The translations under genes and the position numbers were made by a program. 64,000 nt of DNA from a virus: the IMG/VR virus record IMGVR_UViG_3300045988_171089; one strand, 5' to 3'. Positions 2,916 to 32,982 of this stretch are shown one piece after another. The stretch's first letter is position 1, and each line of letters begins with the position of its first letter. The notes under the pieces were generated by a model, which was not told the DNA's origin, did no database searches, and worked only from the letters and a program-made list of their open reading frames with translations.

Positions 2916-4517
2916 CTAGCCCTTGTTTTCCCACGGCCAGCCAGCCGAGGTGCCACGCTCAAGAAGCGGGATAAGCTCGAAACCCTTATCAGTCAGACCA
3001 CCAAGCGACCAACGGCGCTCCTTAGCCTCCATATGTGCCGCCTCATAGCCTGCAAGGTTCCAGGTGAAGACGTTCACGTGCGCCGGTACATAGCGGTCAA
3101 GAACATCATCGACAGTGTACTCAGAACCCCACCACTTACGGGCACCGAGGCTCTGCTCATCACTAATGATAAGGATACGGTCATGACCAGCATAAGACTC
3201 ACGCAGAGCCTTAGCGGTATCAGTACCACCACGAGCCTCCGGCATGTCATTATCAACAACACGCAACAGGTCATTAGAGGTAATCTTAACCTTCTCAACC
3301 TGAGTATCGAACGCCACAACATCAACGCGACCCTTATTCTTCAGAGCAAAGGCGGCGGCGAACATGTTAGCGGCATCCTGACGCGACAGAGAGCTACGCT
3401 CAGACAGGCGGCAACCCATAGAGCCGGAACGGTCAAGAAGAAGCAGGGTACGACCCGGCAACTCCGGCACATTATCCAGCACACTATTAGCACCCGCCTG
3501 TAGTGCGGCGGCAAAATCAAGCGGCGCGTTCTTGTATGCGGCAAGGAAGTTAATCGGCATAGTCTTCGCACGGACAATAGCTTCCTCATCACGCAACTTA
3601 CGGTTAATCTTCTCGATAGTATCGTAAGACACACCCGCGTTGCTGATACGGCTCAGGTTCATACGAAGCGCCTGGTAACCCATATGGTCAATAAGATTAT
3701 CCCAAACCTCAGCCGGGATAACACCAATAGTACCCGCAATTACCTCATGGGTAAGACGCGCATCCTTGATGATACGGTCTGCGGATTCCTTATCGGAAAG
3801 AACCTTAATCTTCTCGTCCTTGGTGAGGTTCAAGAAGTCACGGCGTGCCTTCATGACGGACAGCTCTTCAAGGTTCGGCTCACGACCGTAAGCAGAATCA
3901 ATGATAGTGCCGTACAGGTTCTCGCGGTACTTATCAGACGGCTTCGGGTGGACAAGGTTCACCACGTCAGCAAGAGTGAAAGCACCCTTAGCCATACGAC
4001 CCTGCCACTTCAAAACACTGTTCTCAGTAACAGACTTATTCAGGGCATCAGCAATACCACGCTTCACAGCAGACGGCACCTTACGACCAAAACGGGTAAA
4101 CCAGTAAGCAAGGAACTCGCTAGACTCATCCAGACGACCAATAGCGGCGGCAACAAGGGCACGGTTACCACCAGTCAAACCAGCCTCCAGGCGTGCATGA
4201 ACAGCTTCAGCGGCAATCATTGCCGGTACAGCACGAAGACCTGCCTCCTGACGAAGCCAACCAATCAGACCCTCAAGCCAAACATTATCGTCTGCAACCT
4301 TCTTCACAAGACCAGCGATACGGTCAGCACGCGCGTCAGCCTTCTCATAGAACGTATCCTCATTCAGCGAGGTAACGGCGGCTAGGAACAGCTCAGCCTT
4401 CGGGGTACGCTTCCAGCCGGTACCACCCTCAAAGGTACTGATACGCTCGCCGGTAGTGTCAATCTTATTAGTCGCCTTATTAGCGGTCACATGGTTCTTA
4501 GTGTTGAATCGTCCCAT
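2916..4517 (-). CDS. rsr: Ro60/TROVE-domain protein with C-terminal vWA domain (Rsr-like, 533 aa)
   Basis: N-terminal FEGGTGW (Ro60 EGGtyy-like) TROVE region; C-terminal vWA with MIDAS DRSGSMG ... GGTDT ... ILIISDEQS; size matches Ro60 (~530 aa). Confidence 0.85.
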   Translation of the reverse strand: MGRFNTKNHVTANKATNKIDTTGERISTFEGGTGWKRTPKAELFLAAVTSLNEDTFYEKADARADRIAGLVKKVADDNVWLEGLIGWLRQEAGLRAVPAMIAAEAVHARLEAGLTGGNRALVAAAIGRLDESSEFLAYWFTRFGRKVPSAVKRGIADALNKSVTENSVLKWQGRMAKGAFTLADVVNLVHPKPSDKYRENLYGTIIDSAYGREPNLEELSVMKARRDFLNLTKDEKIKVLSDKESADRIIKDARLTHEVIAGTIGVIPAEVWDNLIDHMGYQALRMNLSRISNAGVSYDTIEKINRKLRDEEAIVRAKTMPINFLAAYKNAPLDFAAALQAGANSVLDNVPELPGRTLLLLDRSGSMGCRLSERSSLSRQDAANMFAAAFALKNKGRVDVVAFDTQVEKVKITSNDLLRVVDNDMPEARGGTDTAKALRESYAGHDRILIISDEQSLGARKWWGSEYTVDDVLDRYVPAHVNVFTWNLAGYEAAHMEAKERRWSLGGLTDKGFELIPLLERGTSAGWPWENKG

Positions 4518-8678: not shown

Positions 8679-8754
8679 GAAGATGACACGGAAACGGTTC
8701 AATGCTGAAGGTACTGGGTCAAAAGGTGGTAGAGGCCCCTTGAAGTTTCGTTCT

Positions 8755-8926
8755 GAGTCATCCCCGTGTGCACGGTAGATGAGCCAGGGCTTCGCCCTGA
8801 CGGTAACCCTCAAATCAGTATTAGCCGATTCTCCTGGTCTTGACATGCAACCCCGAAAGGTTGTCTGTCCGTTTATACTCTCCCGTCTCTCACAGGCGAG
8901 GGCAATACACCCAAAAAGTGTGTTAC
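8755..8926 (-). repeat. tRNA-linked structured repeat element, copy A
   Basis: Conserved core (minus strand) CTCGCCTGTGAGAGACGGGAGAGTATAAACGGACA-[variable hairpin]-GTCAAGACCAGG...CTTGAGGGTCACCGTC-[variable hairpin]-GGCTCA.CTACCGT...ACGGGG.TGACTC shared with copies at 18158, 20115, 20776, 23130. Confidence 0.7.
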
Positions 8927-9000
8927 GTGCCCCCGTGGGATTTGAACCCACGACCTGCGGATTAAAAGTCCGTAGCTCTGACCTGACTGAGCTAAAGGGG
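8927..9000 (-). tRNA. tRNA-Lys(TTT)-like, probably chimeric/pseudo (acceptor 5' strand ACCCCTT does not pair with 3' strand GGGGGCA)
   Basis: D-arm GCTC/GAGC, anticodon loop CTTTTAA, T-arm GTGGG-TTCAAAT-CCCAC; the 3' end GGGGCAC is the sequence that precedes repeat copies C and E, suggesting replacement of the native 3' end. Confidence 0.5.
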
Positions 9001-9013
9001 TCTACAAGGAACA

Positions 9014-9042
9014 AGTATACAGTACTCGTTTCTGTTTTGCAA
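9014..9042 (-). promoter_or_regulatory. promoter TTGCAA-N17-TATACT driving tRNA-Lys copy at 8927
   Basis: Minus strand TTGCAA(9037-9042), 17-nt spacer, TATACT(9014-9019), ~12 nt before tRNA 5' end; near-identical copy at 23015-23043. Confidence 0.6.
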
Positions 9043-9224
9043 ATTCATTATTTCTAGGGGGTCTATATGTGGGGCAATATCTCATTACGCCTATAACCAT
9101 TAGGGCACACCCCTAATCCTAATGCAAGCCGAAATAGCATGAAATAGGTCATATAAAGAATTGGGCAAAGTGAAACCCCCTAGAGGAAATACCACTAGGG
9201 GGTTTTATTCAGTAGTTCAAACTA

Positions 9225-10010
9225 CTACTTCTTATTGTTCGCCTTCAGCTTTTCCAGCTCATCATCCAGAGCGGAATCAACAGCCAGAGAGTCCAGCTCA
9301 TCGAAGCCGTCCTTTACCGGGTCAGCCATAATCTCCTGACGACCCTGAAGACGTGCCTCCTCACGGGCGATACGCTCTTCCCACTCATTCATAGGCGAGC
9401 TCAGGTTAGTACCATTAACATTGATGCTCTCAGTAGCGTCAAGGATACGACCCATAGCCTCATTAGTCTTATGACGTGCCAGAAGCTCATCACGCTGGTG
9501 GTGAGCCGCCGCCAGCTTCTCACGTGCATCATTTAGCTGACCCTTCAGAGATTCAACACGCGGGGTAGCAACCTTAATCTGCTCCTCAAGCTTCTCAGTG
9601 GTCTTCTCAGCGTTAGTACGGTTCTTCAGGGCGATACGTGCCAGACCGTCAAACTTATCAGCCTTAGCCTCTGCTTCAGCCTTAGCCTTAGCCTGCTCCG
9701 GGTCTTCCGCGTCAAGCTTCTCAGCCTGCGCACGGAACTCATCAGCCTTATTAGAAGCCGCCTGAGCCTTAACCTGCCACTCCTGAATCTTAGCCTGTTC
9801 CTTCTTATGGTCGGACTCCATGATGCGCAGGTTGCCGATAACCTCAGCAACATTACCCTCCGCTACTCGAATTTCTTCCTTGTAGTCACGGATAAGCTGG
9901 TTCAGCATCTCCTGCGGGTCTTCCGCCTTGTCAATTGCGGTGTTAATCTTTGCGCGAATGAGGTTGTTGAAGCGTGCAAAAATGCTGTTCTTGTTCTGGT
10001 TCTTACCCAT
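9225..10010 (-). CDS. pspA: PspA/IM30/Vipp1-family protein (phage shock protein A-like, ~261 aa from ATG at 10010)
   Basis: N-terminal SIFARFNNLIRAKINTAIDKAEDPQEMLNQLIRDYKEEI matches PspA signature (S-IF-RF-DI-NINALLDKAEDPEKM-Q-IRDM); long coiled-coil; SD AAAGG upstream of 10010. Confidence 0.8.
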   Translation of the reverse strand: MGKNQNKNSIFARFNNLIRAKINTAIDKAEDPQEMLNQLIRDYKEEIRVAEGNVAEVIGNLRIMESDHKKEQAKIQEWQVKAQAASNKADEFRAQAEKLDAEDPEQAKAKAEAEAKADKFDGLARIALKNRTNAEKTTEKLEEQIKVATPRVESLKGQLNDAREKLAAAHHQRDELLARHKTNEAMGRILDATESINVNGTNLSSPMNEWEERIAREEARLQGRQEIMADPVKDGFDELDSLAVDSALDDELEKLKANNKK

Positions 10011-10183
10011 TGTGGGTTTACCTAACCTTTCGTTGGTTAATGTTGTGGAACATGATTCACGGTTGCCCATCCTGTAGGGCTTCCTGTCCTTTGCGTGACC
10101 TTTAATGGTCACACTCAGAATATCATGCTCCGGGGTTTAAATCTAGTGGGTTAGCGTTTTGTGGCTAACTGTTTACCTGCTAT

Positions 10184-11154: not shown

Positions 11155-11239
11155 ATATGCGTACTCCTGTCTAGTAGATAGGGGGTGGTAGCTTGGTTTA
11201 TGCCACCACCCCCCCTGTGCTGTTGGGCTGGTTGCCTGT

Positions 11240-11791
11240 TTAGTTGTTTACGTCTCGAACGTTCACCTTGAACTCACCCTTTACGTTTACGCCGTCCTTG
11301 GGTGCAACGATGGTGATTTCACCGTTCCGGTACTGTTCCTTGGTGCCGAGGGCGTAGGCGTAATCAATATCTTCAACAATGATACGCACCTTGGAGCGGG
11401 GTACGGTGTTGCTGTACAGTTCGCCTTCCTGGGTTCGCAGGGTGTAGTTTAGGTACACTTCGTAGCTGGTGTTCAGGGTAGCGTCCTGTGCTGAGGCTTG
11501 ATAGTCGGCTGTAAGCTTTCCCTTCAATTCGTGGTATCGCGTGTCGGTATCACTATTGACGTGGGGGTGCTCTTCACCCGTAATGTGCTGACGGGTCGTA
11601 AGGTTAGCGTTGATTACTACGGCTTCCTTAGCCTTCTCAGTAGGTTCAGGGCTAGGGGTAGTAGTACTAGTAGGGGTGCTAGTAGCGGTGGTAGTGGTTT
11701 CTTCTACCTTGTTTGCAGTATTTGTGCTGGAACAGCCGGTGAACGCGATAGCACCAATGAGGGCGGCGGCGGTCAGCTTGGAGAATTTCAT
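11240..11791 (-). CDS. lipoprotein (signal peptide + lipobox AFTGC, Thr/Ser/Pro-rich linker)
   Basis: MKFSKLTAAALIGAIAFTGCSS... followed by TTTTATSTPTSTTTPSPEP. Confidence 0.6.
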   Translation of the reverse strand: MKFSKLTAAALIGAIAFTGCSSTNTANKVEETTTTATSTPTSTTTPSPEPTEKAKEAVVINANLTTRQHITGEEHPHVNSDTDTRYHELKGKLTADYQASAQDATLNTSYEVYLNYTLRTQEGELYSNTVPRSKVRIIVEDIDYAYALGTKEQYRNGEITIVAPKDGVNVKGEFKVNVRDVNN

Positions 11792-11826
11792 TATTTAGGT
11801 TCCTTCCAAAGGGTTACGTTAGGGGG

Positions 11827-12078
11827 TTATCGGGTCTGAATGGAAATGCAGGGGGAATCTACGAAAGCTTCCAGGGCGCGCTTAGGGCTTCCCGCGTCAG
11901 CGGTACGGTCAAGGTAGATAGGATATTCCTTCACGCCGCGTGCATGGTATGCGAAAGTGCCAGGGCGCAACTTCCAGTCCTTATTATAGGTAATGATGCC
12001 TACTCGCTCATGGTTACCGTTCATGATTCGGTAAGTATCGTTTTGTACCTTCACTAAGTGAAGACCCTTGTATGCCAT
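11827..12078 (-). CDS. hypothetical protein (83 aa)
   Basis: ORF track. Confidence 0.5.
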   Translation of the reverse strand: MAYKGLHLVKVQNDTYRIMNGNHERVGIITYNKDWKLRPGTFAYHARGVKEYPIYLDRTADAGSPKRALEAFVDSPCISIQTR

Positions 12079-12177
12079 TATAACGCCTTCTTTCCGTTCT
12101 AATTAGTGGTTAGTGGTATTTGCCCCGCTAGGCGCTTAGGTGGTCACCTAGCGGGGTTTCATTGGGTGTTGCGGGGC

Positions 12178-12429
12178 TTAGTAGTCCTCTTCGTCTTCCT
12201 CGTCATCGAGTCCGAAACCACCATTGACACAGTAGGAGCACAGGGTTGCGAGCAGGTGGTCATAGTCGCCACTCATTGCTTCATTGATTACCTTATCAAT
12301 ATCCGCCTTATCCCAACCATCACGTCGCGCCTGCTGTGCAAAGCCACCCATAAGGTTAAAGGCGTTACCATCCTGGCCAACCATTACATAATTGACCTTG
12401 CAGACGGGAGTGAAGTTTTCAATAGCCAT
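12178..12429 (-). CDS. hypothetical acidic protein; start moved to ATG at 12429 (MAIENFTPV...) with SD GAAAGGAAG
   Basis: ORF track 12178..12534; internal ATG preceded by strong SD. Confidence 0.5.
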   Translation of the reverse strand: MAIENFTPVCKVNYVMVGQDGNAFNLMGGFAQQARRDGWDKADIDKVINEAMSGDYDHLLATLCSYCVNGGFGLDDEEDEEDY

Positions 12430-12663: not shown

Positions 12664-13731
12664 CTAGCGGCGCTTACCGCGAGTCAAGAAGGCATTAGAA
12701 ACAACCTTGAAATGTGCGCGGTTAGCGAGTTCACGGCGCGGCTTACCATCTTTAAAGTACCATACGATACCTTCGGCGGTCTGACCGGGCGCTACCTGAG
12801 ACTCTACAGAGTCAGCCTGCTCAAGGGCGGCAAAGCCGTTACCCACCCATTCAATATCGAGGATAGGTACCCAGAGGTTCGCTTCCTTGAACAGGGATTC
12901 CACTTCGGCGTTAGATGCGTGGAAGGCACGGAAATCGGGCTGGTCGCCGGTGCTGAACTTGAAGTTACCCCCGATGCGGTTACAGAACAGTTCGCCCTGC
13001 ACCCATTCGCCTGGCTTGAGCTGGTCAAACACATAGGCGTGACGGCGGTAACCGTCAAGGTACTGCTTCCAGTTCTTACTATCCATTGCGTCTACCTTGA
13101 TGGAGCGGTCACGGTTAGCAATACGAATCTCTTCGGTGTCAATATCACGCCAAACGGTCATAGAGGTGCCGTCAATCTTCTCAGTAGCGTACACATCATT
13201 TGCAGTGACACTGCTCAGGAAGTCGATAGGGATATTCTGGACGCGCTCAGCGTCGGTCTTGGTAATGAAGTTGGGGAAAGCTTCTAGACCGTAGTCACCA
13301 CCGGTGAGAATCTTCTCCTCGACATGCTTAGTGACAATGCCATCGAAGTAAGTATCCACTTCTTCCTGAGTAGCATCTTCACTCAAACCTTCAAACTCAG
13401 AGACGGGCAAGATAAGACCCTGCGACAGGGTTTCACGCAGGTACATGGTGCGCAGTACTACGCCTTCAATATAGTGTCCATTGACAACGCGGGTTGCCTT
13501 CTTGCCACGGATAGGCTCAAACGCCGGGTGCTTGGTGTTGAGGATTGAGTCAATCTCAAAGTAAACACCCTTATCGCCTTCGGTCATGGTCTTGGGTGCT
13601 ACAACCCACCACAGGGTGCCTGCGGGTCGGACGGCGTGAATCTTATCTGCCGGGTTATTACATTCCTTCACTTCTTCAATGGTGGTAATGTGTGCGAGGT
13701 GTCGGATACCGTCTACAGCGGTAGAAGTCAT
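12664..13731 (-). CDS. ATP-dependent RNA ligase-like nucleotidyltransferase (355 aa)
   Basis: Covalent nucleotidyltransferase motifs in order: motif I KIDGTS (ATEKIDGTSMTVW), motif IV EGIVWYF, motif V FKVVS; KxDG(T/S) spacing typical of Rnl-type RNA ligases. Confidence 0.7.
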   Translation of the reverse strand: MTSTAVDGIRHLAHITTIEEVKECNNPADKIHAVRPAGTLWWVVAPKTMTEGDKGVYFEIDSILNTKHPAFEPIRGKKATRVVNGHYIEGVVLRTMYLRETLSQGLILPVSEFEGLSEDATQEEVDTYFDGIVTKHVEEKILTGGDYGLEAFPNFITKTDAERVQNIPIDFLSSVTANDVYATEKIDGTSMTVWRDIDTEEIRIANRDRSIKVDAMDSKNWKQYLDGYRRHAYVFDQLKPGEWVQGELFCNRIGGNFKFSTGDQPDFRAFHASNAEVESLFKEANLWVPILDIEWVGNGFAALEQADSVESQVAPGQTAEGIVWYFKDGKPRRELANRAHFKVVSNAFLTRGKRR

Positions 13732-18030: not shown

Positions 18031-18157
18031 TTGACTAATTTCCTATCAGTAAATGTAAATGAAACGTAAACACTCAATGTCTAGCACACCTGCAAAAGGT
18101 ACAGCTACACACCACTAGTATACAAGAAAAGCCCTCCCCAAGTCCAGCAAGGCAATA

Positions 18158-18356
18158 GAGTCACCCCACATGTACGGGGAGTACTTTGGCACTTTCAAGC
18201 ACGCAGGAGACGATATGTGAGCCAAACCCCCATATGGGGTGGGTCTGACATTTTATCAGACGGTGACCCTCAAGCAAGTTCTAACTATCCTGGTCTTGAC
18301 ATGTAACCCCGAAAGGTCACCTGTCCGTTTATACTCTCCCATCTCTCATAGGCGAG
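18158..18356 (-). repeat. structured repeat element copy B, abutting the 3' end of tnpB (candidate IS right end / omega-RNA scaffold)
   Basis: Same conserved core as copies A, C, D, E, but instead of a tRNA the 5' side joins tnpB stop codon within ~25 nt. Confidence 0.65.
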
Positions 18357-18380
18357 TTTCCCCTTATTGCTAAGGTGGTT

Positions 18381-19946
18381 TTATGCTTCCGCGTGTAGGC
18401 GTTCTGCTTCACACTGGATGTTGATTGCCGCGTTGAGGTCGCGGTCAATCACAGCGTGGCAGTGCCCACACTTATATACACGGTCGCTTAGAGTAAGCTT
18501 AGTGTCAGGTCGCTTACCACAGTTGCTACATGTCTGCGAGGACGGGTAATAGCGGTCGATAACCTGAATAACTGAACCATACCAGGCGGCTTTGTATTCA
18601 AGCTGAGTTCGGAATATACCGAAGGATACGTCGAGTACAGCTCGGTTGAGCCTGGCTTTCTGTGCAACGTTCTTACCAGGCTTTTTGATAGTACCTGATG
18701 CGGATGCGGTCATTCCAGTAACGTTAAGGTCTTCAATACCGATAAGTGTGTATCGGGTGGTTAGGTTTTTAGTGAGCTGATGCAGTCCAGTTTCACGGCG
18801 TAGCGCTGTGAGGTGGTGGGTTTTTGCCAGCTTACGGGCGGTCACCTTGCGGCGATTGGAACCCTTAACCTGTCGTGCAATTTTCTGCTGAAGCTTAGCG
18901 ATACGCTTCTCAGTGTGCTTGAGCCAGCGGGGGTTTTCGACGGTAGGGTTGGTTCCGTTGGTGAAGTTCACGCCACTATCGGGGTTGAAACGCTTAGGTG
19001 CCTTCGTGTCAGAGAGTGCCGCCATATACTTAACACCAAGGTCTACACCTACCGCACCCGCGTTCTTCTGCTTACGAGTAGGCTTAGGGGCGGGTACAGT
19101 TACTTCGACAAGGAAGGATACATACCAGCGGTCAGCTACCTGGGACACGGTGAAAGACTTGATTACACCACCCTTGCGGATAATACTCATCATGTGGCAG
19201 GTATTGCCGTGAATACGGAAAGTTCCAAGGTGCGCGAGGCGGACGTGACGGTAATCACTGATAGTAGGGGTGCTCTTGTCGCCGCGACGCTTCATGTTTT
19301 CTTTGACGCGCTTATATGCCGGTTCACCACGCAGGTACGCGGTTCCGTAACCACCCATAACTTCGGGTGCGTAAATAGTGAAAGAGTCACTATTAGATGC
19401 GCGACTTTTAAACTTAGGGGTACCCATCTTACCACCCGCACGCTTACCAGTACGCGAATCAAAAAAGTTCTTGAGTGCCTTATCAGCAGACTGTAGACCA
19501 GACATGAGGACACGACGCTTCGCAGTATGAAGCCACGGCTCCCTAGAACGCTCCTCGTCGCCCCACACTTCCTCCACAGGTGCACCTTCTTCGATAGCCT
19601 TAGCACAGGCGCGATGACGGGCAACCTCAGCAGTCAGCATCTTACTACTAAACGCCATATAACCCAGTGTCTTGAACTTAGGGTCTTCCTTGGTGAGAGT
19701 CTTAAGCTCAGCCTTAATCTCGTCATCAGACGCGCCCTCTTCGCGGCGCTTAGCCCAATACTTGTTGCGGGTGTGCATAACCTCAGTGTTATAACCAACA
19801 AGCATATTATAGGCATAACGAGAAGCACCACCATCACGCGCCAAAGCAACCAACTGCTCCTGAGTAGGGTCAAGGCAAAACTTAAACGCAACATGACGCT
19901 CAACGGTATCCGGCGACGTGCCGGTAGATTCAACAGTAGTGGGCAT
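18381..19946 (-). CDS. tnpB: TnpB (IS200/IS605-family OrfB, RuvC-like RNA-guided nuclease), ~521 aa from ATG 19946
   Basis: N-terminal AFKFCLDPTQEQ...ASRYAYN (OrfB_IS605 HTH); RuvC-I GVDLGV, RuvC-II IGIEDLNV, C-terminal zinc finger CSNCG...CGHC and RuvC-III RDLNAAINI; ORF track start 20045 includes a 33-codon upstream artefact. Confidence 0.85.
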   Translation of the reverse strand: MPTTVESTGTSPDTVERHVAFKFCLDPTQEQLVALARDGGASRYAYNMLVGYNTEVMHTRNKYWAKRREEGASDDEIKAELKTLTKEDPKFKTLGYMAFSSKMLTAEVARHRACAKAIEEGAPVEEVWGDEERSREPWLHTAKRRVLMSGLQSADKALKNFFDSRTGKRAGGKMGTPKFKSRASNSDSFTIYAPEVMGGYGTAYLRGEPAYKRVKENMKRRGDKSTPTISDYRHVRLAHLGTFRIHGNTCHMMSIIRKGGVIKSFTVSQVADRWYVSFLVEVTVPAPKPTRKQKNAGAVGVDLGVKYMAALSDTKAPKRFNPDSGVNFTNGTNPTVENPRWLKHTEKRIAKLQQKIARQVKGSNRRKVTARKLAKTHHLTALRRETGLHQLTKNLTTRYTLIGIEDLNVTGMTASASGTIKKPGKNVAQKARLNRAVLDVSFGIFRTQLEYKAAWYGSVIQVIDRYYPSSQTCSNCGKRPDTKLTLSDRVYKCGHCHAVIDRDLNAAINIQCEAERLHAEA

Positions 19947-20067
19947 AATAAAAAACTTCCTAAAATGGATGTGGACAATAAAAGCCCACCCCAAACCTAA
20001 CACTGGAAAACCAGCACCAGACCCAGGGAGGGCTTCAAAAAACAATAGTCACAATAAGGTGTAAAAG

Positions 20068-20114
20068 TAACCCCGGCGGGAATCAAACCCGCACAATCTG
20101 TGTAGGAGACAGAC
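20068..20114 (-). pseudogene. 3' fragment of a tRNA-Arg(CCT)-like gene (anticodon arm + T-arm + acceptor 3' strand; no D-arm/5' acceptor)
   Basis: TCTGT-CTCCTAC-ACAGA, GCGGG-TTTGATT-CCCGC then CGGGGTTA; closely resembles the 3' half of intact tRNA-Arg(CCT) at 20302-20373. Confidence 0.55.
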
Positions 20115-20301
20115 GCTCTAGAGTCACCCCCGCGTGCAAGTCATACAAGCCTTACAGTTTTGCGGATAGGCGAGCCAAAGCTTTACTTTGACGGTGACCC
20201 TCAAGCCGGTTACCCAGCTATCCTGGCCTTAACACGTTAATGTCCGTTTAACCTCTCCCGTCTCTCACAGGCGAGGGTGACACACCCTAGAGTGTGCTAC
20301 G
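20115..20301 (-). repeat. tRNA-linked structured repeat element, copy C
   Basis: Full-length copy between intact tRNA-Arg(CCT) and its displaced 3' fragment. Confidence 0.7.
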
Positions 20302-20373
20302 TGCCCCTGGCGGGAATCGAACCCGCACGACTTGTGTAGGAGACAAGTGCTCTATCCGTTAAGCTACAGGGGT
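20302..20373 (-). tRNA. tRNA-Arg(CCT)
   Basis: Acceptor ACCCCTG/CAGGGGC (A1-C72 mismatch), D-arm GCTT/GAGC, anticodon stem CTTGT/ACAAG loop CTCCTAC, T-arm GCGGG-TTCGATT-CCCGC. Confidence 0.7.
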
Positions 20374-20548
20374 GAAAGACGGGTGAAGGTATCAACACAC
20401 CAAAAGGTGCCGTCTGCATCAACCTCCACCCAACCGAGGTATAAAAACTAGCCGTATCACCGCTAGTGCTCAAACCCGAAAGAATGGACACAAACAGCCC
20501 TACTGACCTGTCAAATAAAGTTGAACCACCACTTTAGCAGTCCAACCG

Positions 20549-20623
20549 CACCCCCAACGGGATTTGAACCCGCGACCTCCGCCGTGAGAAGACGGTATCC
20601 TAGACCAACTAGACCATAGGGGC
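20549..20623 (-). tRNA. tRNA-Glu(CTC)
   Basis: Acceptor GCCCCTA/TGGGGGT, anticodon stem CCGTC/GGCGG loop TTCTCAC, T-arm GCGGG-TTCAAAT-CCCGT. Confidence 0.7.
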
Positions 20624-20662
20624 AAAACATAGGCAATAACCCATAATAGGTTATTACCCCAG

Positions 20663-20737
20663 TACCCCTCGCAGGATTTGAACCTGCAACCTGGCGGTTC
20701 GTAGCCGCCTGCTCTATCCACGTTGAGCTAGAGGGGT
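20663..20737 (-). tRNA. tRNA-Arg(ACG)
   Basis: Acceptor ACCCCTC/GAGGGGT, D-arm GCTC/GAGC, anticodon stem GGCGG/CCGCC loop CTACGAA, T-arm GCAGG-TTCAAAT-CCTGC. Confidence 0.75.
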
Positions 20738-20741
20738 TTAT

Positions 20742-20775
20742 GAAGCTCTCCAGGAAGGAGTCGAACCTGGAACCA
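20742..20775 (-). pseudogene. 3' fragment of a tRNA-Asn-like gene
   Basis: gaagctctccaggaaggagtcgaacctgg closely matches the 3' end of tRNA-Asn (gaagctctcccggaaggactcgaacc) at 20950. Confidence 0.5.
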
Positions 20776-20911
20776 GAGCCTACCTCATGAGTATGAGGAG
20801 GGCCTAACATTTTGTTAGACGGTGACCCTCAAGCCGGTAACCCAGCTATCCTGGTCTTGACACCACCCGAAAGCAATGTCCGTTTATACTCTCCCGTCTC
20901 TCACAGGCGAG
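20776..20911 (-). repeat. tRNA-linked structured repeat element, copy D
   Basis: Conserved core between tRNA-Asn(GTT) and the displaced tRNA-Asn 3' fragment. Confidence 0.65.
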
Positions 20912-20949
20912 ATATATAACACGCCACCAAAAAATGGTGAAGAGTGAAG

Positions 20950-21021
20950 CTCTCCCGGAAGGACTCGAACCTTCAACCAATCGCTTAACAGGCGACCGCT
21001 CTGCCATTGAGCTACGAGAGA
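20950..21021 (-). tRNA. tRNA-Asn(GTT)
   Basis: Acceptor TCTCTCG/CGGGAGA, D-arm GCTC/GAGC, anticodon stem GTCGC/GCGAT loop CTGTTAA, T-arm GAAGG-TTCGAGT-CCTTC. Confidence 0.75.
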
Positions 21022-21112
21022 ATATAGAGAAACAACCACTAGTCAGGTACACGCACACGGAAAGAAAGATTAAGAAACGTGGAGTGTAACCAAAACAAGG
21101 GGTATATTTCCC

Positions 21113-21150
21113 TTAGAAGCCTGGGGCGGAATCGAACCACCCTCTCCCGG
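21113..21150 (-). pseudogene. isolated tRNA 3' fragment (T-arm GGTGG-TTCGATT-CCGCC + CCAGGCT) with no matching 5' acceptor strand
   Basis: No complementary AGCCTGG found within 150 nt upstream on the minus strand. Confidence 0.4.
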
Positions 21151-21359
21151 CGACGAAGTAACAAGTACTGTAACACCAACTTTGGAAAGGTAACCAGTCA
21201 TGTATACTAAGTCGTTCAGGCGCATCACCAGATGCTACCAAGCCAAACGTGGAAACGTGCAGGTACCGAGCCTGCACCCACCGCAAAGGGTCGCTCTTCC
21301 TTGGAGACGTAACGCTTCCACTTATAAACACTAGAACAAAATCAACTAGTATTATCCGT

Positions 21360-21432
21360 TCTAGTGAAGAGCCTCCTACCGGACTTGAACCGGTAACCTC
21401 CTGTTTACAAGACAGGTGCTCTACCAATTGAG
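21360..21432 (-). tRNA. tRNA-Thr(TGT)
   Basis: Acceptor GCCTTCT/AGGAGGC, D-arm GCTC/GAGC, anticodon stem CCTGT/ACAGG loop CTTGTAA, T-arm ACCGG-TTCAAGT-CCGGT. Confidence 0.8.
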
Positions 21433-21434
21433 CT

Positions 21435-21506
21435 AAGAAGGCGGGGTGTGTGACGGGACTCGAACCCGCTACTACTTGCGCCACAAGCAAGCGCCTCGCT
21501 ATTCGG
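21435..21506 (-). tRNA. tRNA-His(GTG)
   Basis: Acceptor GTGTGTG/CACACAC, discriminator C, anticodon stem CTTGC/GCAAG loop TTGTGGC, T-arm GCGGG-TTCGAGT-CCCGT; no encoded G-1 (base -1 is T). Confidence 0.7.
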
Positions 21507-21508
21507 CT

Positions 21509-21582
21509 TCACACACAGTGCCCCCTACTGGACTCGAACCAGTGACCCACGCCGTGTAAAGGCGGCACTCTAACCAACTGAG
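21509..21582 (-). tRNA. tRNA-Val(TAC)
   Basis: Acceptor GCCCCTT/AGGGGGC, D-arm GCTC/GAGT, anticodon loop TTTACAC, T-arm ACTGG-TTCGAGT-CCAGT; only 2 nt from tRNA-His. Confidence 0.7.
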
Positions 21583-21682
21583 CTAAAGGGGCGAAACGCA
21601 TACTATGTCCACTATCTTCCATCAACCAGTGAAGGAAACCGCGCCCATTACCCGTATGCGAGAGGCAAAGAACCCGGTACAG

Positions 21683-21756
21683 TAGTCCCTGCTGGACTTG
21701 AACCAGCGACACCCACCGTATCAGAGTGGTGCTCTAACCTGCTGAGCTAACAGACC
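21683..21756 (-). tRNA. tRNA-Ile(GAT)
   Basis: Acceptor GGTCTGT/AGGGACT (one G.G mismatch), D-arm GCTC/GAGC, anticodon stem CCACT/GGTGG loop CTGATAC, T-arm GCTGG-TTCAAGT-CCAGC. Confidence 0.65.
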
Positions 21757-21849
21757 AGGGTACGCCACTATGAGTGGCATATATACTATCCACTTAGGAT
21801 AGTAGCTCACGTTCGAGGGTGGTACACCCTAGAAGAACGTGTTACGCAC

Positions 21850-21912
21850 AGCCCGCCGGATTTGAACCGACACCTCCGTCACCCAGCGCACTACCCGATT
21901 ATACTAAGGCTG
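21850..21912 (-). ncRNA. non-canonical tRNA-like element (good 7-bp acceptor ACAGCCT/GGGCTGT and T-arm GTCGG-TTCAAAT-CCGGC, but only 35 nt between them and no recognisable D/anticodon arms)
   Basis: Acceptor/T-arm complementarity unlikely by chance; middle region cannot be folded into a standard cloverleaf. Confidence 0.35.
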
Positions 21913-22038
21913 TTGCCGCACCCCTACAAGCCGTTCACGTGATTAACTCGTATGATGCCCCTCAAGGCTCATGACAACCTCAAGGCACGACATGCTTTAA
22001 AGAAAAATGTACAGCCAACATGCCAAAACTGCACATAG

Positions 22039-22113
22039 TGCACCCTGTGGGGCTCGAACCCACGACCCGGCGGTTAAGAGCCGCCTGCTCTACCTGCTGA
22101 GCTAAAGGTGCGC
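22039..22113 (-). tRNA. tRNA-Lys(CTT)
   Basis: Acceptor GCACCTT/AGGGTGC, D-arm GCTC/GAGC, anticodon stem GGCGG/CCGCC loop CTCTTAA, T-arm GTGGG-TTCGAGC-CCCAC. Confidence 0.8.
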
Positions 22114-22227
22114 GGCGTACTGGCTGAAAGGGCTCGAAAGCACCAGTACGCCTTAATCAGTATTATTCGACTTTTGTCTTTAGTAAGCTTCCTGAAAGGA
22201 GTTAAGTAAAAAAGGAAGCTTACCGAG

Positions 22228-22297
22228 CATCTTACAGGGCTCGAACCTGTGACCTCCACACCAAAGTGCGGCGCTCTACCAACTGAGCTCAAGATGC
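22228..22297 (-). tRNA. tRNA, anticodon uncertain (possibly TTG/Gln); anticodon stem poorly paired
   Basis: Perfect acceptor GCATCTT/AAGATGC, D-arm GCTC-AGTTGGTA-GAGC, T-arm ACAGG-TTCGAGC-CCTGT; candidate loop CTTTGGT. Confidence 0.45.
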
Positions 22298-22439
22298 CGT
22301 CACAGCACAAATCAACTATGTGCACAGGTTTCACTGTACTATGACACCCCAGAGAGGATTCGCGAGTTCCACTCAAGAGGTCAGGGACTTTCGCGTTTAC
22401 ACCCCTGAATAATTGTAACGCACCATATAGCGCGTTCAG

Positions 22440-22517
22440 TACGCCCTACGGGACTCGAACCCGTGCCACTTGTCCCAGTCGGTGACTCCAGGGCTCTACC
22501 ATCTGAGCTAAGGACGT
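22440..22517 (-). tRNA. tRNA, anticodon undetermined (78 nt; extra nucleotides between D-arm and T-arm)
   Basis: Acceptor ACGTCCT/AGGGCGT, D-arm GCTC-AGATGGTA-GAGC, T-arm ACGGG-TTCGAGT-CCCGT; middle region CCTGGAGTCACCGACTGGGACAAGTGGC does not give a standard 17-nt anticodon arm. Confidence 0.4.
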
Positions 22518-22679
22518 TACCGCACCCTAAGTAACCACCAAAGGGTACACCTAAAGGCTCGCGACTTCCTCTAGGTTACTCAAAGAAGGTGAATAGGTAA
22601 AAGCCCTCCTTTGAGAAGTATTGACACATACGTTACAGCAATGTTTAAAAGTGTAGTTGATGTGTCTAAACTACACTAG

Positions 22680-22761
22680 TACGCCCGGAGGGACTTGAAC
22701 CCTCACGTCCGAAGACACAGGAACCTAAATCCTGCGTGTCTGCCAATTTCACCACGGGCGC
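22680..22761 (-). tRNA. tRNA-Leu(TAG) (type II, long variable arm)
   Basis: Acceptor GCGCCCG/CGGGCGT, 3-bp D-stem, anticodon stem CAGGA/TCCTG loop TTTAGGT, variable arm GTC-TTCG-GAC, T-arm GAGGG-TTCAAGT-CCCTC. Confidence 0.8.
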
Positions 22762-22790
22762 TTATACAAGATAGTGATTATCTTGCAGAG

Positions 22791-22863
22791 TGGACCGTAT
22801 GGGAATCGAACCCATGACCTCCTGCTTGCAAAGCAGGCGCTCTACCAATTGAGCTAACAGCCC
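22791..22863 (-). tRNA. tRNA-Ala(TGC)
   Basis: Acceptor GGGCTGT/ACGGTCC (G3.T70 wobble, Ala identity-like), D-arm GCTC/GAGC, anticodon stem CCTGC/GCAGG loop TTTGCAA, T-arm ATGGG-TTCGATT-CCCAT. Confidence 0.8.
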
Positions 22864-22929
22864 TCACCCTTCAGTGTTATATATGACTGAAGGGGTGTTT
22901 GTTAAGAAGTGTTTTAGGCTTCTTGTTTG

Positions 22930-23002
22930 TGCGCCCTACGGGGCTCGAACCCGTGACCCGAAGATTAAAAGTCTACTGCTCTACCAACTGAGCTAAAGGC
23001 GC
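22930..23002 (-). tRNA. tRNA-Lys(TTT)
   Basis: Acceptor GCGCCTT/AGGGCGC, D-arm GCTC/GAGC, anticodon loop CTTTTAA, T-arm ACGGG-TTCGAGC-CCCGT; preceded by promoter 23015-23043. Confidence 0.8.
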
Positions 23003-23014
23003 TTACAAGGAACA

Positions 23015-23043
23015 AGTATATCATGTTCCTTTGTGTTTTGCAA
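23015..23043 (-). promoter_or_regulatory. promoter TTGCAA-N17-TATACT immediately upstream of tRNA-Lys(TTT)
   Basis: Near-identical to the element at 9014-9042. Confidence 0.6.
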
Positions 23044-23113
23044 AATTCACTATTTAGTGTTGTCAATTATCTAGTGTCTAAGTAAACAGTGTTTTGCTGT
23101 CTTCTTGACTTGC

Positions 23114-23131
23114 GTACTCCCAACGGGATGA
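23114..23131 (-). pseudogene. short tRNA-Glu-like 3' fragment (ATCCCGTTGGGAGTAC) flanking repeat copy E
   Basis: Resembles T-stem 3' half + acceptor 3' strand of tRNA-Glu. Confidence 0.35.
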
Positions 23132-23297
23132 GTCACCCCCGTATATACGGTAGGTGAGCCAAAGCTTTACTTCGACGGTGACCCTCAAGCCAGCCTAAGC
23201 TGACCCTGGTCTTGACACGTGAATGTCCGTTTAGATTAGCCACCTCTCCCAGTCTCTCACAGGCGAGGTGAGTGAACACACCCTAGAGTATGTTACG
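23130..23297 (-). repeat. tRNA-linked structured repeat element, copy E
   Basis: Full-length copy directly 3' of tRNA-Glu(TTC). Confidence 0.7.
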
Positions 23298-23370
23298 TGC
23301 CCCTAACGGGATTTGAACCCGTGTTACCGCCGTGAAAGGGCAGTGTCCTTGGCCGCTAGACGATAGGGGC
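23298..23370 (-). tRNA. tRNA-Glu(TTC)
   Basis: Perfect acceptor GCCCCTA/TAGGGGC, 3-bp D-stem, anticodon stem CTGCC/GGCGG loop CTTTCAC, T-arm ACGGG-TTCAAAT-CCCGT. Confidence 0.8.
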
Positions 23371-31196: not shown

Positions 31197-32732
31197 CTAG
31201 AGGTAGTTTTCCTCAGCATCTAGAGGCTCTAGGGTAGGCTCAGCTTCCTTCTTAGTATCCTTAGCGGCGTTATTGATTCCGCTACCAATAGCTCGACCGG
31301 TTACGGTTGCCTGAATCAGGTCACGAACGTCAAGTCCTAGACCGGCGGTTACCTTGTCCATGCTGGTCATGATGTCTCCAACCATCTGCCCGGCATTACC
31401 TTCACCGTACATGGTGATGCTATCAACATTGTTCAGTGGCTCAGATACGGCGCGTGCAACTTCAGGTAGGACATTGACAAGCATCTCGATAACAGCGGCA
31501 TCCTTCATCTTGAGCATTGCCTCTGCCTTCTTGTCTAGACCGTCTGCTTCTGCTTCAAGCTTGAGGCGCACTGCTTCTGCTTCAGCTTCACCACGTAGGC
31601 GGATTGCGTCTGCTTCTGCTTCTGCCGTCATCTTGAGAGCTTCCGCTTCCTGCTGGCGGCGGTAAGCCTCAGCTTCAGCGGTCATCTTCAGCACTTCTGC
31701 TTCCTGCTGGCGGCGGTACGCTTCAGCTTCGGACTTCTTCATGCTCTCGAACAGTTCAGCCTGTGCGCGCTGTTCACGTGCTCGACGTTCAGTGTTCGCG
31801 GTTTCTTCAACCTCAGCGACTAGGGTCTGCTTTCGGACTTCGACTTCCTTAGCCTTGACCTGTGCTTCCTTTTCCTGCCGGACAATGTTAGCGTTAGCGC
31901 GGGCGGCTTCGGTTCGGCTTCGCTGGTTCTCGTACTCAGTCTCGAACGCGGCTTCAGCGATTGCTCGTTCCTTCTCAGCTTCAGCCTTGAGCTGACTCTT
32001 AGAAATTTCGAGCTCGTTCTGCCTCTTAGCGATTTCCTTATCAGCGGCGACACGTGCGTCGTTTGCCAGCTTTTCAGAGCTTGCCTGCTGTTCCTCAATC
32101 TTCTGGGTTGCGATAGCCTTAGCGGTTGCCGCTTCCTGTCGAATCTTCTCGGTATTGTCAGCACCAAGGTTGTCGATAACACCCTTATCGTCACGGACGG
32201 TCTGGATGTTGAACGCTACGATTTCTAGACCCATTTCCTCTAGGTCGTTCGTTGCGTTTTCCTGAACCTTGTTAGCGAGCTGTTGCCTATCTTGGACGAT
32301 AGCCTTCAGCTCCATTTCACCAATGATGGAACGCAGGTGACCTTCAAGGGTTTCACGTACCGAGTCAGCGATTTCAATATCAGTCCTGCCGAGGAAGTTT
32401 CGGGCGGCAACCTCGAACAGTTCCTTACGGTCTAGACCAATACGTACCTTCACTTCAGCTTCAGCCTGCACATTGATAAAGTCGTTAGTAGGGGTGCTAC
32501 CGTTCGTCTTCACATCAATAGATACCATGCTTGCGGTCATGGAGTCTACACGCTCAATGAACGGGACACGCCAACCAGTCTTACCCTGTAGTACACGGAT
32601 ACCACGGCGACCTGAGATGACCTTCACCTCACCGGGGCTTGCCGATACGATACCTGCCATGAAGATTGCCACACCGATACCAATGATGATGAGTGCGGCT
32701 ACGGCGATAATTAGTAGGTTCGCTACTTGCAT
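31197..32732 (-). CDS. SPFH/band-7 (flotillin-like) membrane protein with long coiled-coil tail
   Basis: N-terminal TM (LLIIAVAALIIIGIGVAIFMAGIV) then SPFH-like core (EVKVISGRRGIRVLQGKTGWRVPFIE...) and EA-repeat coiled coil; start moved to ATG 32732 (SD GGAAAG). Confidence 0.75.
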   Translation of the reverse strand: MQVANLLIIAVAALIIIGIGVAIFMAGIVSASPGEVKVISGRRGIRVLQGKTGWRVPFIERVDSMTASMVSIDVKTNGSTPTNDFINVQAEAEVKVRIGLDRKELFEVAARNFLGRTDIEIADSVRETLEGHLRSIIGEMELKAIVQDRQQLANKVQENATNDLEEMGLEIVAFNIQTVRDDKGVIDNLGADNTEKIRQEAATAKAIATQKIEEQQASSEKLANDARVAADKEIAKRQNELEISKSQLKAEAEKERAIAEAAFETEYENQRSRTEAARANANIVRQEKEAQVKAKEVEVRKQTLVAEVEETANTERRAREQRAQAELFESMKKSEAEAYRRQQEAEVLKMTAEAEAYRRQQEAEALKMTAEAEADAIRLRGEAEAEAVRLKLEAEADGLDKKAEAMLKMKDAAVIEMLVNVLPEVARAVSEPLNNVDSITMYGEGNAGQMVGDIMTSMDKVTAGLGLDVRDLIQATVTGRAIGSGINNAAKDTKKEAEPTLEPLDAEENYL

Positions 32733-32982
32733 TATGTAGTTATTCTTTCCGTCGTGGGACATTGCAGATTCACAGACCACTACCCCCGGCGGGTTCGTGT
32801 CTTAAACCTTTAGGGGCGTGTTCATGGTGCCCTGTGAATCTTTGATGTTTCCCAGTGTACACGTGAAGCCGTAGGTTTATCAACTCAGCGGGCGTGTTTC
32901 ATGACTTGATAATAAAAAGAAAGGGGCACCTACCTGCTACTGTTAGCGAGTAGGTGCCCCTCACGCGGGTGCATATGTGCAG

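Follow-up and report, generated by a model that had tools for sequence, protein, structure and literature searches.

Repeated RNA modules in a jumbo phage genome as probable natural single guides of a phage-encoded Cas12n nuclease

The repeats and the neighboring nuclease gene

The DNA analyzed here, a 64-kilobase (kb) stretch of a virus genome (IMG/VR record IMGVR_UViG_3300045988_171089; "the window"), carries five copies of a structured element of 120 to 200 nucleotides (nt). All five are on the minus strand, as are all genes around the repeats and the tRNA array. Four copies (A, C, D, and E) lie behind tRNA genes, and the fifth (B) lies behind the gene for a nuclease of 521 amino acids (aa). 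A first-pass annotation, made from the letters alone, had placed five copies at these positions, and a covariance model search of the 64 kb returned exactly the same five, at 113 to 126 bits. The 16-mer CTTGAGGGTCACCGTC, allowing up to three mismatches, occurs seven times against 0.51 expected, and five of these occurrences are the copies; the 23-mer CTCGCCTGTGAGAGACGGGAGAG occurs four times against 0.00 expected. Every copy closes with G(A/G)CTC (A at 8755, B at 18219 and again at 18158, C at 20121, D at 20776, and E at 23130). Copy C had been placed correctly but run on to 20115; its true end is 20121, and the TAGAGC beyond it belongs to a tRNA fragment. Copy D is complete, and its last hairpin, CCTCATACTCATGAGG, is a compensated variant of the copy E hairpin, CCGTATATACGG.

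Copies A, C, and E follow tRNA-Lys(ttt), tRNA-Arg(cct), and tRNA-Glu(ttc), respectively, and D follows tRNA-Asn(gtt) with a 37-nt linker. The displaced tRNA fragments that had been described behind C, D, and E were also recovered, the Arg fragment by Rfam (29.6 bits) and the 33-nt Asn and 16-nt Glu fragments by alignment. In the following list, each module is given together with the hairpin that precedes its scaffold, and the predicted guide is the sequence 3′ of the closing tail.

8755-8926, minus strand: module A, trailer hairpin plus scaffold after tRNA-Lys(ttt) at 8927-9002 (119.8 bits); landmarks from sequence reading, CTCGCC at 8900 and tail GACTC at 8759-8755
8734-8754, minus strand: predicted guide of A, AGAACGAAACTTCAAGGGGCC, which is the 5′ untranslated region of the next gene
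18381-19946, minus strand: cas12n, 521 aa, predicted type V-N RNA-guided nuclease (Pfam and PDB match)
18158-18380, minus strand: module B, a hairpin after the stop codon (18380-18357) and then the scaffold (113 bits)
Ending at 18219, minus strand: scaffold of module B, stems 1 to 4 plus a fused stem 5 and the tail GGCTC (covariance model and sequence reading)
18158-18218, minus strand: second unit of module B, a 34-nt spacer (18218-18185) and a 27-nt repeat with tail GACTC (18184-18158)
18137-18157, minus strand: predicted terminal guide of B, TATTGCCTTGCTGGACTTGGG, which is the flank of the cas12n cassette
20121-20300, minus strand: module C, trailer hairpin (20300-20276) and scaffold (20275-20121) (113.5 bits)
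20301-20373, minus strand: tRNA-Arg(cct), directly adjoining module C (ARAGORN)
20067-20120, minus strand: predicted guide region of C, a displaced 3′ part of tRNA-Arg(cct), D-stem to 3′ end, of a different allele (Rfam tRNA, 29.6 bits)
20776-20948, minus strand: module D, linker with hairpin (20948-20912) and scaffold (20911-20776) after tRNA-Asn(gtt) at 20949-21021 (126 bits)
20743-20775, minus strand: predicted guide region of D, a 33-nt tRNA-Asn-like 3′ fragment (alignment)
23130-23296, minus strand: module E, trailer hairpin plus scaffold after tRNA-Glu(ttc) at 23297-23370 (114 bits)
23110-23129, minus strand: predicted guide of E, a displaced tRNA-Glu 3′ end (16 nt, ATCCCGTTGGGAGTAC) plus 4 nt of flank
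21806-21913, minus strand: probable truncated sixth copy, consisting of a tRNA-like element (21913-21847), a trailer hairpin, and the scaffold start CCCTCGAACGTGAG

The sixth element holds the leader and half of stem 1 and falls below detection by the covariance model. Its tRNA-like part (34 bits with Rfam) is kept in the sibling genomes L167 and L173 and is absent in L169, and the whole of 21806-21913 is probably an old, decayed copy. The ACACAC/GTGTGT hairpin that had been noted as a mark of the repeats is indeed present, but it is not specific to them, being one of the trailer hairpins found behind most tRNAs of the phage. We considered and rejected the trailer hairpin as a part of the module: other tRNAs of the phage have such hairpins, and the tRNA-Tyr gene of L173 keeps its hairpin with no module behind it.

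The gene beside copy B had been read as a catalytically intact tnpB. Its motifs are intact and its architecture is of the TnpB type, with Pfam matches to HTH_OrfB_IS605, OrfB_IS605, and the Cas12f1-like TNB domain, but it is not a generic tnpB. By its closest matches it is Cas12n (type V-N, formerly V-U4): the best solved relative is the Cas12n of Rothia dentocariosa (RdCas12n; PDB 9J09/9UDI), which aligns over residues 16 to 520 (E = 3.9e-174, 583 bits). The RuvC D/E/D residues (in GVDLGV, IEDLN, and DRDLNAA) align with those of RdCas12n, as does a CCCC zinc finger, CSNCG..CGHCH (CxxC..CxxC). At the positions that read the protospacer-adjacent motif (PAM), a hand count of the alignment gave R140, P189, and E190 as the same and T95→S, R247→K, K102→V, and P187→Y as changed. 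The phage nuclease looks active. The "Cas12 hacker" family was also considered as an assignment and rejected, its structures being 9JFS and 9JG3 and its pseudoknot motif being AAAC:UUUG. Among five sibling genomes, including the window, cas12n is found at no fewer than four positions, in each case with a module behind it. Two related phage contigs have further TnpB/Cas12-like genes besides cas12n, with Cas12f1-like TNB matches: L174 at 3777-4478 (plus strand) and 19388-21040 (minus strand), and L178 at 11181-12320 (plus strand), encoding 233, 550, and 379 aa.

RdCas12n is a monomeric type V-N nuclease with the PAM 5′-AAC/AAH (Fu et al. 2025, PMC12216341). Its trans-activating CRISPR RNA (tracrRNA) overlaps the 3′ end of the open reading frame (ORF), and its single-guide RNA (sgRNA) has five stems and a pseudoknot that joins repeat positions −4 to −2 to the stem-1 region (PMC12216341). 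Type V-N has been accepted as a subtype and is rare among complete genomes, and Cas12n has been presented as an early intermediate on the way from transposon TnpB to CRISPR Cas12.

In a large protein search, Cas12n relatives at 82 to 91% identity formed one clade on contigs with a length of about 290 kb and a maximum of 379 kb, and BLASTP gave a second group of homologues, chromosomal proteins of R. mucilaginosa (56%) and R. dentocariosa (55%). The search also returned at least eight additional homologues, encoded on contigs of 133 to 379 kb. By these matches, the window comes from a jumbo phage clade. Its host is probably Rothia, the sole basis for this being the similarity of the nuclease, the scaffold, and the repeat. 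A megablast search of INPHARED with the region returned tRNA matches only, indicating no cultured relative there. A peptide-pattern scan of genome contigs for the nuclease recovered no relative above 39% identity, and its patterns were too specific to pick up Rothia; the Rothia loci were reached via the protein search. The sibling genomes used below (L167, L169, L173, and L175) are syntenic with the window.

A Cas12n guide-RNA scaffold fused to its repeat

Rfam, at its gathering threshold and at E values up to 10, has no family for the repeats. With nhmmer and other searches we gathered 37 distinct copies, drawn from the window and from four genomes of related phages, and aligned them. RNAalifold resolved stem 1, a stem 2 of varying length, stem 3, and stem 4, with compensatory double changes in 16 of 30 pairs. 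The first-pass annotation had described conserved segments interrupted by hairpins that vary in sequence and keep their pairing, and the alignment agrees: 96.8% of the cells pair, compared with 27 to 44% when partners are slid by one to three columns, and none of 500 shuffles reached the observed pairing or covariation. Module E folded as a single sequence gives the trailer (linker) hairpin and all five stems (z = −3.09). Full-length copies score 104 to 126 bits in several genomes. Together these data make a strong case for purifying selection on the structure of the scaffold.

The same structure lies beside the characterized Cas12n genes. A covariance model built from the phage copies alone (R1) matched the tracrRNA region of R. 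dentocariosa at 61.5 bits (E = 1e-14), that of R. mucilaginosa at 46.6 bits (E = 1e-10), and, with 21 bits, the corresponding position of a Nonomuraea homologue. At the gene 3′ end, both Rothia loci have the window motifs CTCGCC..GGGAGAG, AAACGGAC, GTCAAGACC, and GGGTCACCGT; the Rothia sequence reads CTCGCCTCAGAAAATGGGGAGAGTCTAAACGGAC...GTCAAGACCA...GAGGGTCACCGTAGATGAGTAATCATC at the 3′ end of cas12n and beyond, followed by an anti-repeat, a leader, and a CRISPR array. The pseudoknot partners in loop and tail change together, being GAA/UUC in R. dentocariosa, GGC/GCC in R. mucilaginosa and in the phage sequences L177 and L178, and GAG/CUC in the window clade. By these comparisons, the repeat is the guide-RNA scaffold of the phage's Cas12n and is homologous to the characterized tracrRNA/sgRNA scaffold. 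The proposal of a structured, omega-RNA-like partner of the adjacent TnpB-type gene thus stands, but the family is not a new one, since R1 identifies it as the Cas12n scaffold.

Scaffold and repeat are arranged in two ways. Beside cas12n in contig 174689 (L002; IMGVR_UViG_3300045988_174689) and in L169, the layout is classical, with a scaffold, a leader-like stretch, and four to seven repeats (GTTTTCCCCGTACACGCGGGGGTGGCTC). In relatives, the last hairpin comes back as a 28-nt repeat, which with 33-nt spacers gives a 61-nt period, the same as in Rothia arrays. The repeat family may be like that of type I-E, which is marked by palindromic repeats of 28 to 29 nt, spacers of 32 to 33 nt, and a first spacer base that comes from the PAM; relatives and Rothia show this geometry, and the 37-nt units between repeats, counted once each, start with C in 12 of 12 cases. 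In all five window copies, and in most copies elsewhere, the stretch from the anti-repeat hairpin to the close of the first repeat is missing, so that stem 5 is a simple hairpin and the RNA would be a natural single guide. The window copies thus differ from a separate tracrRNA and CRISPR RNA (crRNA) with an anti-repeat:repeat duplex: both strands form a single hairpin, and neither a leader nor an array intervenes. In several relatives, fused modules continue with one to three further repeat-spacer units. Copy B likewise has two guide units (tail, 34-nt spacer, 27-nt repeat, tail) and is the only array remnant in the window. Neither cas1 nor cas2 was seen in the phage. There are five copies in the 64-kb window and at least 12 in one relative.

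Empty sites, guides, and the tRNA array

The annotation had suggested looking for empty sites in related genomes, and sibling genomes provide one for each of the five window copies. In all five cases the scaffold 3′ end is the exact boundary of the insertion or deletion, and the guide is neighboring DNA. At site D, the tRNA-Asn gene of L169 (...GGGAGAGCTT|TAAACCCCTC) runs directly into tRNA-Arg(acg), and the window and L167 have the linker, module D, and the 33-nt Asn-like fragment inserted there. This fragment has 2 mismatches in 21 nt to the tRNA-Asn allele of L175, which has no module, and 3 mismatches (positions 6, 7, and 16) to the phage's own tRNA-Asn. Module E is absent in L167, L173, and L169. 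The tRNA-Glu genes of L167 and L173 end in ATCCCGTTGGGGGTAC followed by AAGTCAAG, which is the displaced fragment plus flank of the window, and the intact tRNA-Glu 3′ end of the window, ATCCCGTTAGGGGCAC, is of the L169 type; the E guide has 2 mismatches in 21 nt to the intact L167/L173 end and 5 to its own rebuilt tRNA-Glu. The fragment behind C has the anticodon stem TCTGT/ACAGA, as do the alleles of L169, L173, and L175; in the rebuilt gene this stem is CTTGT/ACAAG, different but compensated.

At site B, L169 has an uninterrupted terminator hairpin, GAAGCCCTTCC...GGGGAGGGTTTTT, and in the window cas12n and module B sit inside the loop of a hairpin of this type; the terminal guide of B has 1 mismatch in 21 nt to its right half in L169. 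At site A, L173 has the post-tail sequence (1 mismatch) in front of the orthologous gene with neither tRNA-Lys nor module, and homology between L173 and the window starts exactly at the tail of module A. Occupancy among the five siblings is polymorphic at Glu(ttc), Tyr, Asn, Arg(cct), Thr, and Lys(ttt). Direct repeats of tRNA sequence flank the modules, so that an empty site could be either the ancestral state or the product of a deletion. The left junctions have no common motif (TTCAA, CGGA, CGA(T/A), GGTT, and TTAA), and neither tnpA nor an integrase was found among the ORFs scanned near the modules.

One true spacer has an informative match. In contig 174689, one spacer finds its counterpart in the tRNA-Asp locus of another contig of that metagenome, 179268: 26 of 32 positions agree, including an unbroken run of the first 19, which adjoins AAC, the RdCas12n PAM. 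The tRNA-Asp of the spacer-bearing genome itself differs. This match supports targeting of sibling phages, including their tRNA genes. Another spacer of contig 174689 (1871-1907) has a partial match within its own genome: on the opposite strand, roughly 800 nt downstream, a short motif that is repeated (2668-2695 and 2750-2767) agrees with it at 26 of 28 positions, with the five PAM-proximal nucleotides unmatched. Spacers of the Rothia arrays, compared with the window, gave no match.

ARAGORN found 16 tRNA genes in the window, 15 in an array at 20301-23370 and one at 8927-9002; Rfam adds the weak tRNA-like element at 21847-21913 and scored 20068-20125 as a partial tRNA. None of the tRNA genes has an encoded CCA, and their trailers open with a small hairpin, also where no module follows. 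In the first eight sequences, 24 of 38 modules start 6 to 35 nt after a same-strand ARAGORN tRNA, 2 follow tRNA-like ends, 5 follow the cas12n stop codon, and the rest follow promoter-like −10 boxes; a scan for promoters and terminators was not above background. Fragments behind modules begin at AGAGC (D-stem), at the variable loop or T-stem, or at ATCC (T-loop), and in some modules the isoacceptor of the fragment differs from that of the upstream tRNA. Two more distant phage lineages have seven and six scaffolds in 17 kb, between protein genes and with no tRNA nearby, and one Rothia chromosome has a single scaffold. tRNA genes are a nonobligatory site for modules.

Several features of the array and its surroundings were recorded in passing. 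The tRNA-Ile(gat) gene at 21682-21770 (minus strand) begins with the 5′ end of tRNA-Asp, and the segment with Asp, Tyr, and a module that siblings have (L167 7979-8365, L169 2967-3502, and L173 7903-8330) has been lost in the window by recombination between the Asp and Ile 5′ halves. Two odd tRNA genes are kept in position among siblings: one at 22225-22297 (minus strand) with an abnormal anticodon loop (ARAGORN "tRNA-???, anticodon (tt)," and "(gt)" in siblings) and a 79-nt tRNA-Val(cac) at 22439-22517 (minus strand) that scores only 45.5 bits. Both tRNA-Lys(ttt) genes are preceded by a near-identical promoter-like leader, TTGCAAAACA..N..TATACTTGTTCCTTGTA (23015-23044 and 9014-9044, minus strand), which suggests that the Lys(ttt) units are duplicated cassettes including their promoter. 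The tRNA array and the cas12n cassette have an RNA ligase gene nearby (12664-13731, minus strand; Pfam matches to PHA02142 OB-fold and RNA_ligase), and in L175 cas12n directly follows the RNA ligase gene. A 533-aa Ro60-like protein with TROVE and Ro60 vWA domains is encoded at 2916-4517 (minus strand) and also in L169 and L175. Rfam gave no convincing Y RNA partner for it; a subthreshold YrlA match over tRNA-Thr/His (21391-21497, minus strand; 28.6 bits against a gathering threshold of 69) is probably mere tRNA likeness. Genes of the PspA/IM30 family (9225-10112, minus strand) and of the flotillin/SPFH family (31197-32780, minus strand) encode membrane-stress proteins.

Interpretation, alternatives, and significance

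We consider it very probable that the repeats are natural single-guide RNA genes of the phage's own Cas12n, each with its scaffold fused to the 3′ part of a repeat. In the RNA that we propose, the tracrRNA scaffold (stems 1 to 4) would continue by way of stem 5, a hairpin, into the 3′ part of the CRISPR repeat. The pseudoknot would form between the tail of that repeat, G(G/A)CUC, and GAG in the stem-1 loop, and the sequence 3′ of the tail would serve as the guide, making the RNA equivalent to a TnpB omega-RNA. Modules behind tRNA genes would be cotranscribed with the upstream tRNA, and the module 5′ end would be set when the tRNA 3′ end is processed; as the tRNA genes encode no CCA, RNase Z is the presumed enzyme. 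Cas12n from 18381-19946, which we assume acts in trans, would load the modules and cut matches to the guide of about 20 nt at an A-rich PAM. The guides would match sibling alleles without cassettes, namely, variant 3′ parts of tRNA-Arg, -Asn, and -Glu and the unoccupied flanks of A and B, which makes use against coinfecting relatives likely. The phage's own genome would be spared: at the guide loci the scaffold tail occupies the PAM position, and the rebuilt tRNAs differ from the flank-derived guides by 3 to 5 mismatches. The first-pass annotation had offered a mobile element and a tRNA-operon RNA as alternatives; the two do not exclude each other, the repeats being best described as guide-RNA genes gained and lost as cassettes within tRNA operons.

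Several observations weigh against this interpretation. Characterized Cas12n has a separate tracrRNA and crRNA and not a fused form. The best matches of the guides to sibling alleles still have 1 to 3 mismatches, and the five empty sites show no uniform PAM or target motif. The 3 nt before the target, read in register and then shifted by 1 nt, are TAA and AAA for A, CAA and AAA for E, GGA and GAT for C, GTT and TTT for B, and GAT and ATT for D (GAA and AAT in the L167 and L169 alleles), so that at best some of the flank-derived guides have an AAH PAM. The one true spacer of module B (18218-18185) has no convincing target, with nothing found in IMG/VR; 18 spacers from relatives found nothing in INPHARED, and two from relatives found nothing or only themselves in IMG/VR. 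A 20-nt metagenome match of the B spacer, in two homologous low-GC bacterial contigs, was set aside as chance, having neither an extension nor an AAN PAM.

A further layer may be added to the guide-RNA interpretation, namely, RNA-guided homing, in which the guide would direct a cut in the cassette-less allele of a sibling and repair would copy in the cassette together with the rebuilt tRNA end. For A, B, D, and E, the guide reads the empty-site allele with 1 or 2 mismatches in 21 nt; in all five copies the end of the scaffold marks the precise insertion boundary; the tRNA parts that have been rebuilt correspond to those of other siblings; and presence or absence is polymorphic at orthologous tRNAs. 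There are precedents as well, since TnpB promotes transposon retention by cleavage and recombination (PMC13565253), and phage homing endonucleases such as SegB reportedly act in tRNA gene clusters (PMC2330249). However, the PAMs at the empty sites are inconsistent, and guide C differs from all observed alleles at three seed positions. The same structures could be made or removed by plain recombination between the direct repeats of tRNA sequence on either side, and homeologous recombination between tRNA genes clearly occurs, the Asp/Ile fusion having deleted a module. Because only some targets could fit AAH, we regard homing, or exclusion by the nuclease, as a serious but tentative proposal whose chances fall short of even. 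The full picture, in which one Cas12n and a dozen-odd guide cassettes of 150 to 200 nt make up an intronless, RNA-guided homing system, with each cassette lodged in or behind a tRNA gene whose 3′ end it restores from its own copy, matured by tRNA processing, and aimed at the cassette-less alleles of rivals, and at the same time a living intermediate between CRISPR and omega-RNA, is on balance unlikely.

The modules could instead be the right ends of an IS200/IS605-type TnpB transposon (PATE/MITE-like) mobilized by TnpA in trans. Such an origin would account for the Pfam OrfB_IS605 architecture of the protein, for a scaffold end that coincides with the element boundary and a guide that is flank, as in omega-RNAs, and for the many dispersed copies in three phage lineages. 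No tnpA appears among the scanned ORFs, however, no target motif is common to the left junctions, the left ends vary and in some cases carry tRNA pieces, and the nearest homologues are immobile, chromosomal, CRISPR-linked cas12n loci; we hold this origin to be improbable. It is also quite improbable that the orphan copies are functionless tracrRNA duplicates that spread by recombination within the tRNA array and are slowly decaying. Recombination between tRNA genes is evident, and truncated copies exist (window 21806-21845, L173 9097, and L002 3459), but the 37 aligned copies keep every stem by compensatory changes, the pseudoknot partners are invariant, full-length copies with high model scores occur in several genomes, and several copies have regular repeat-spacer units. 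An integrase-type element that targets tRNA genes, with the RNA structure as its attachment site, is hardly credible: rebuilt tRNA 3′ ends and displaced fragments do resemble attL and attR, but the inserts are just 170 to 250 nt, no integrase was found among the scanned ORFs, the junctions fall at three different tRNA positions (D-stem, variable loop, and T-loop), and the same module also occurs without any tRNA.

The system itself is already known as Cas12n, type V-N. The phage version shares with the Rothia loci the protein (55 to 56% identity), the scaffold motifs, stems, and pseudoknot, the 28-nt repeats, and the 61-nt period. It differs in that the fusion is natural in the phage and artificial, with a GAAA loop, in the RdCas12n work (PMC12216341); in that the Rothia chromosome has one scaffold, whereas the phage has many, mostly distant from the gene and behind tRNAs; and in that phage guides are mostly flank derived rather than acquired spacers. 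TnpB omega-RNAs, including standalone, trans-acting ones (PMC10691335), similarly combine scaffold and guide in one RNA, end the scaffold at the insertion boundary, use adjoining DNA as the guide, and have orphan copies without a nuclease gene; in the phage, in contrast, no TnpA (among the ORFs scanned), insertion sequence ends, or common target motif was found, the nuclease belongs to a CRISPR-associated clade, and some modules have true repeat-spacer arrays. In inactivated TnpBs associated with RpoE (a sigma factor), a tracrRNA and half repeat have been re-fused into an omega-RNA and then multiplied in arrays (PMC10691335). That course, from CRISPR tracrRNA and repeat to a multicopy fused guide RNA, is the same as the one proposed here, but those proteins are nuclease-dead bacterial regulators, whereas the phage nuclease is seemingly active and the copies are dispersed behind tRNAs.

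Two further systems bring guides or nucleases to tRNA genes. Homing guides of type V-K CRISPR-associated transposons (Cas12k) are reported to target tRNA genes (bioRxiv 10.1101/2021.02.06.429022), so that there, too, a type V guide beside a mobile element matches the tRNA gene at the insertion site; Cas12k is inactive and directs transposition, whereas the phage has no Tn7 machinery and would need cleavage and recombination. T4 SegB (PMC2330249) is likewise a nuclease-linked element that sits among phage tRNA genes and reportedly targets the corresponding tRNA region in related phages, but recognition is by protein there and would be by RNA in the phage cassettes.

What is new is the organization: natural fused single guides, in many dispersed copies per jumbo-phage genome, behind tRNAs with rebuilt 3′ ends, with guides that read the unoccupied allele. 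We could not find a fusion of tracrRNA and half repeat followed by multiplication described for Cas12n or for phages, and we found no published description of guide cassettes arranged behind phage tRNA genes. Engineered polycistronic tRNA-gRNA arrays, a laboratory design that Xie et al. reportedly introduced in 2015, also place a tRNA directly upstream of a guide RNA; in the phage, a 5′ end defined by processing is what the layout suggests, and the modules may be a natural precedent for such tRNA-guide RNA polycistrons.

Both RNA states occur within this one gene family, the classical arrangement of tracrRNA, leader, and array and the compact fused guide aimed at the DNA beyond its own insertion, so that the transition between tracrRNA/crRNA and omega-RNA, in either direction, becomes directly comparable in natural sequences. 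The natural fused scaffolds, at about 140 nt, are also ready-made sgRNA designs for a miniature nuclease. The modules point to a multiguide, single-nuclease weapon or homing system between rival jumbo phages and to a force that reshapes phage tRNA arrays. If homing does occur, cassettes and linked tRNA genes would spread, or rivals would be excluded, during coinfection, and one nuclease gene would serve many cheap homing sites.

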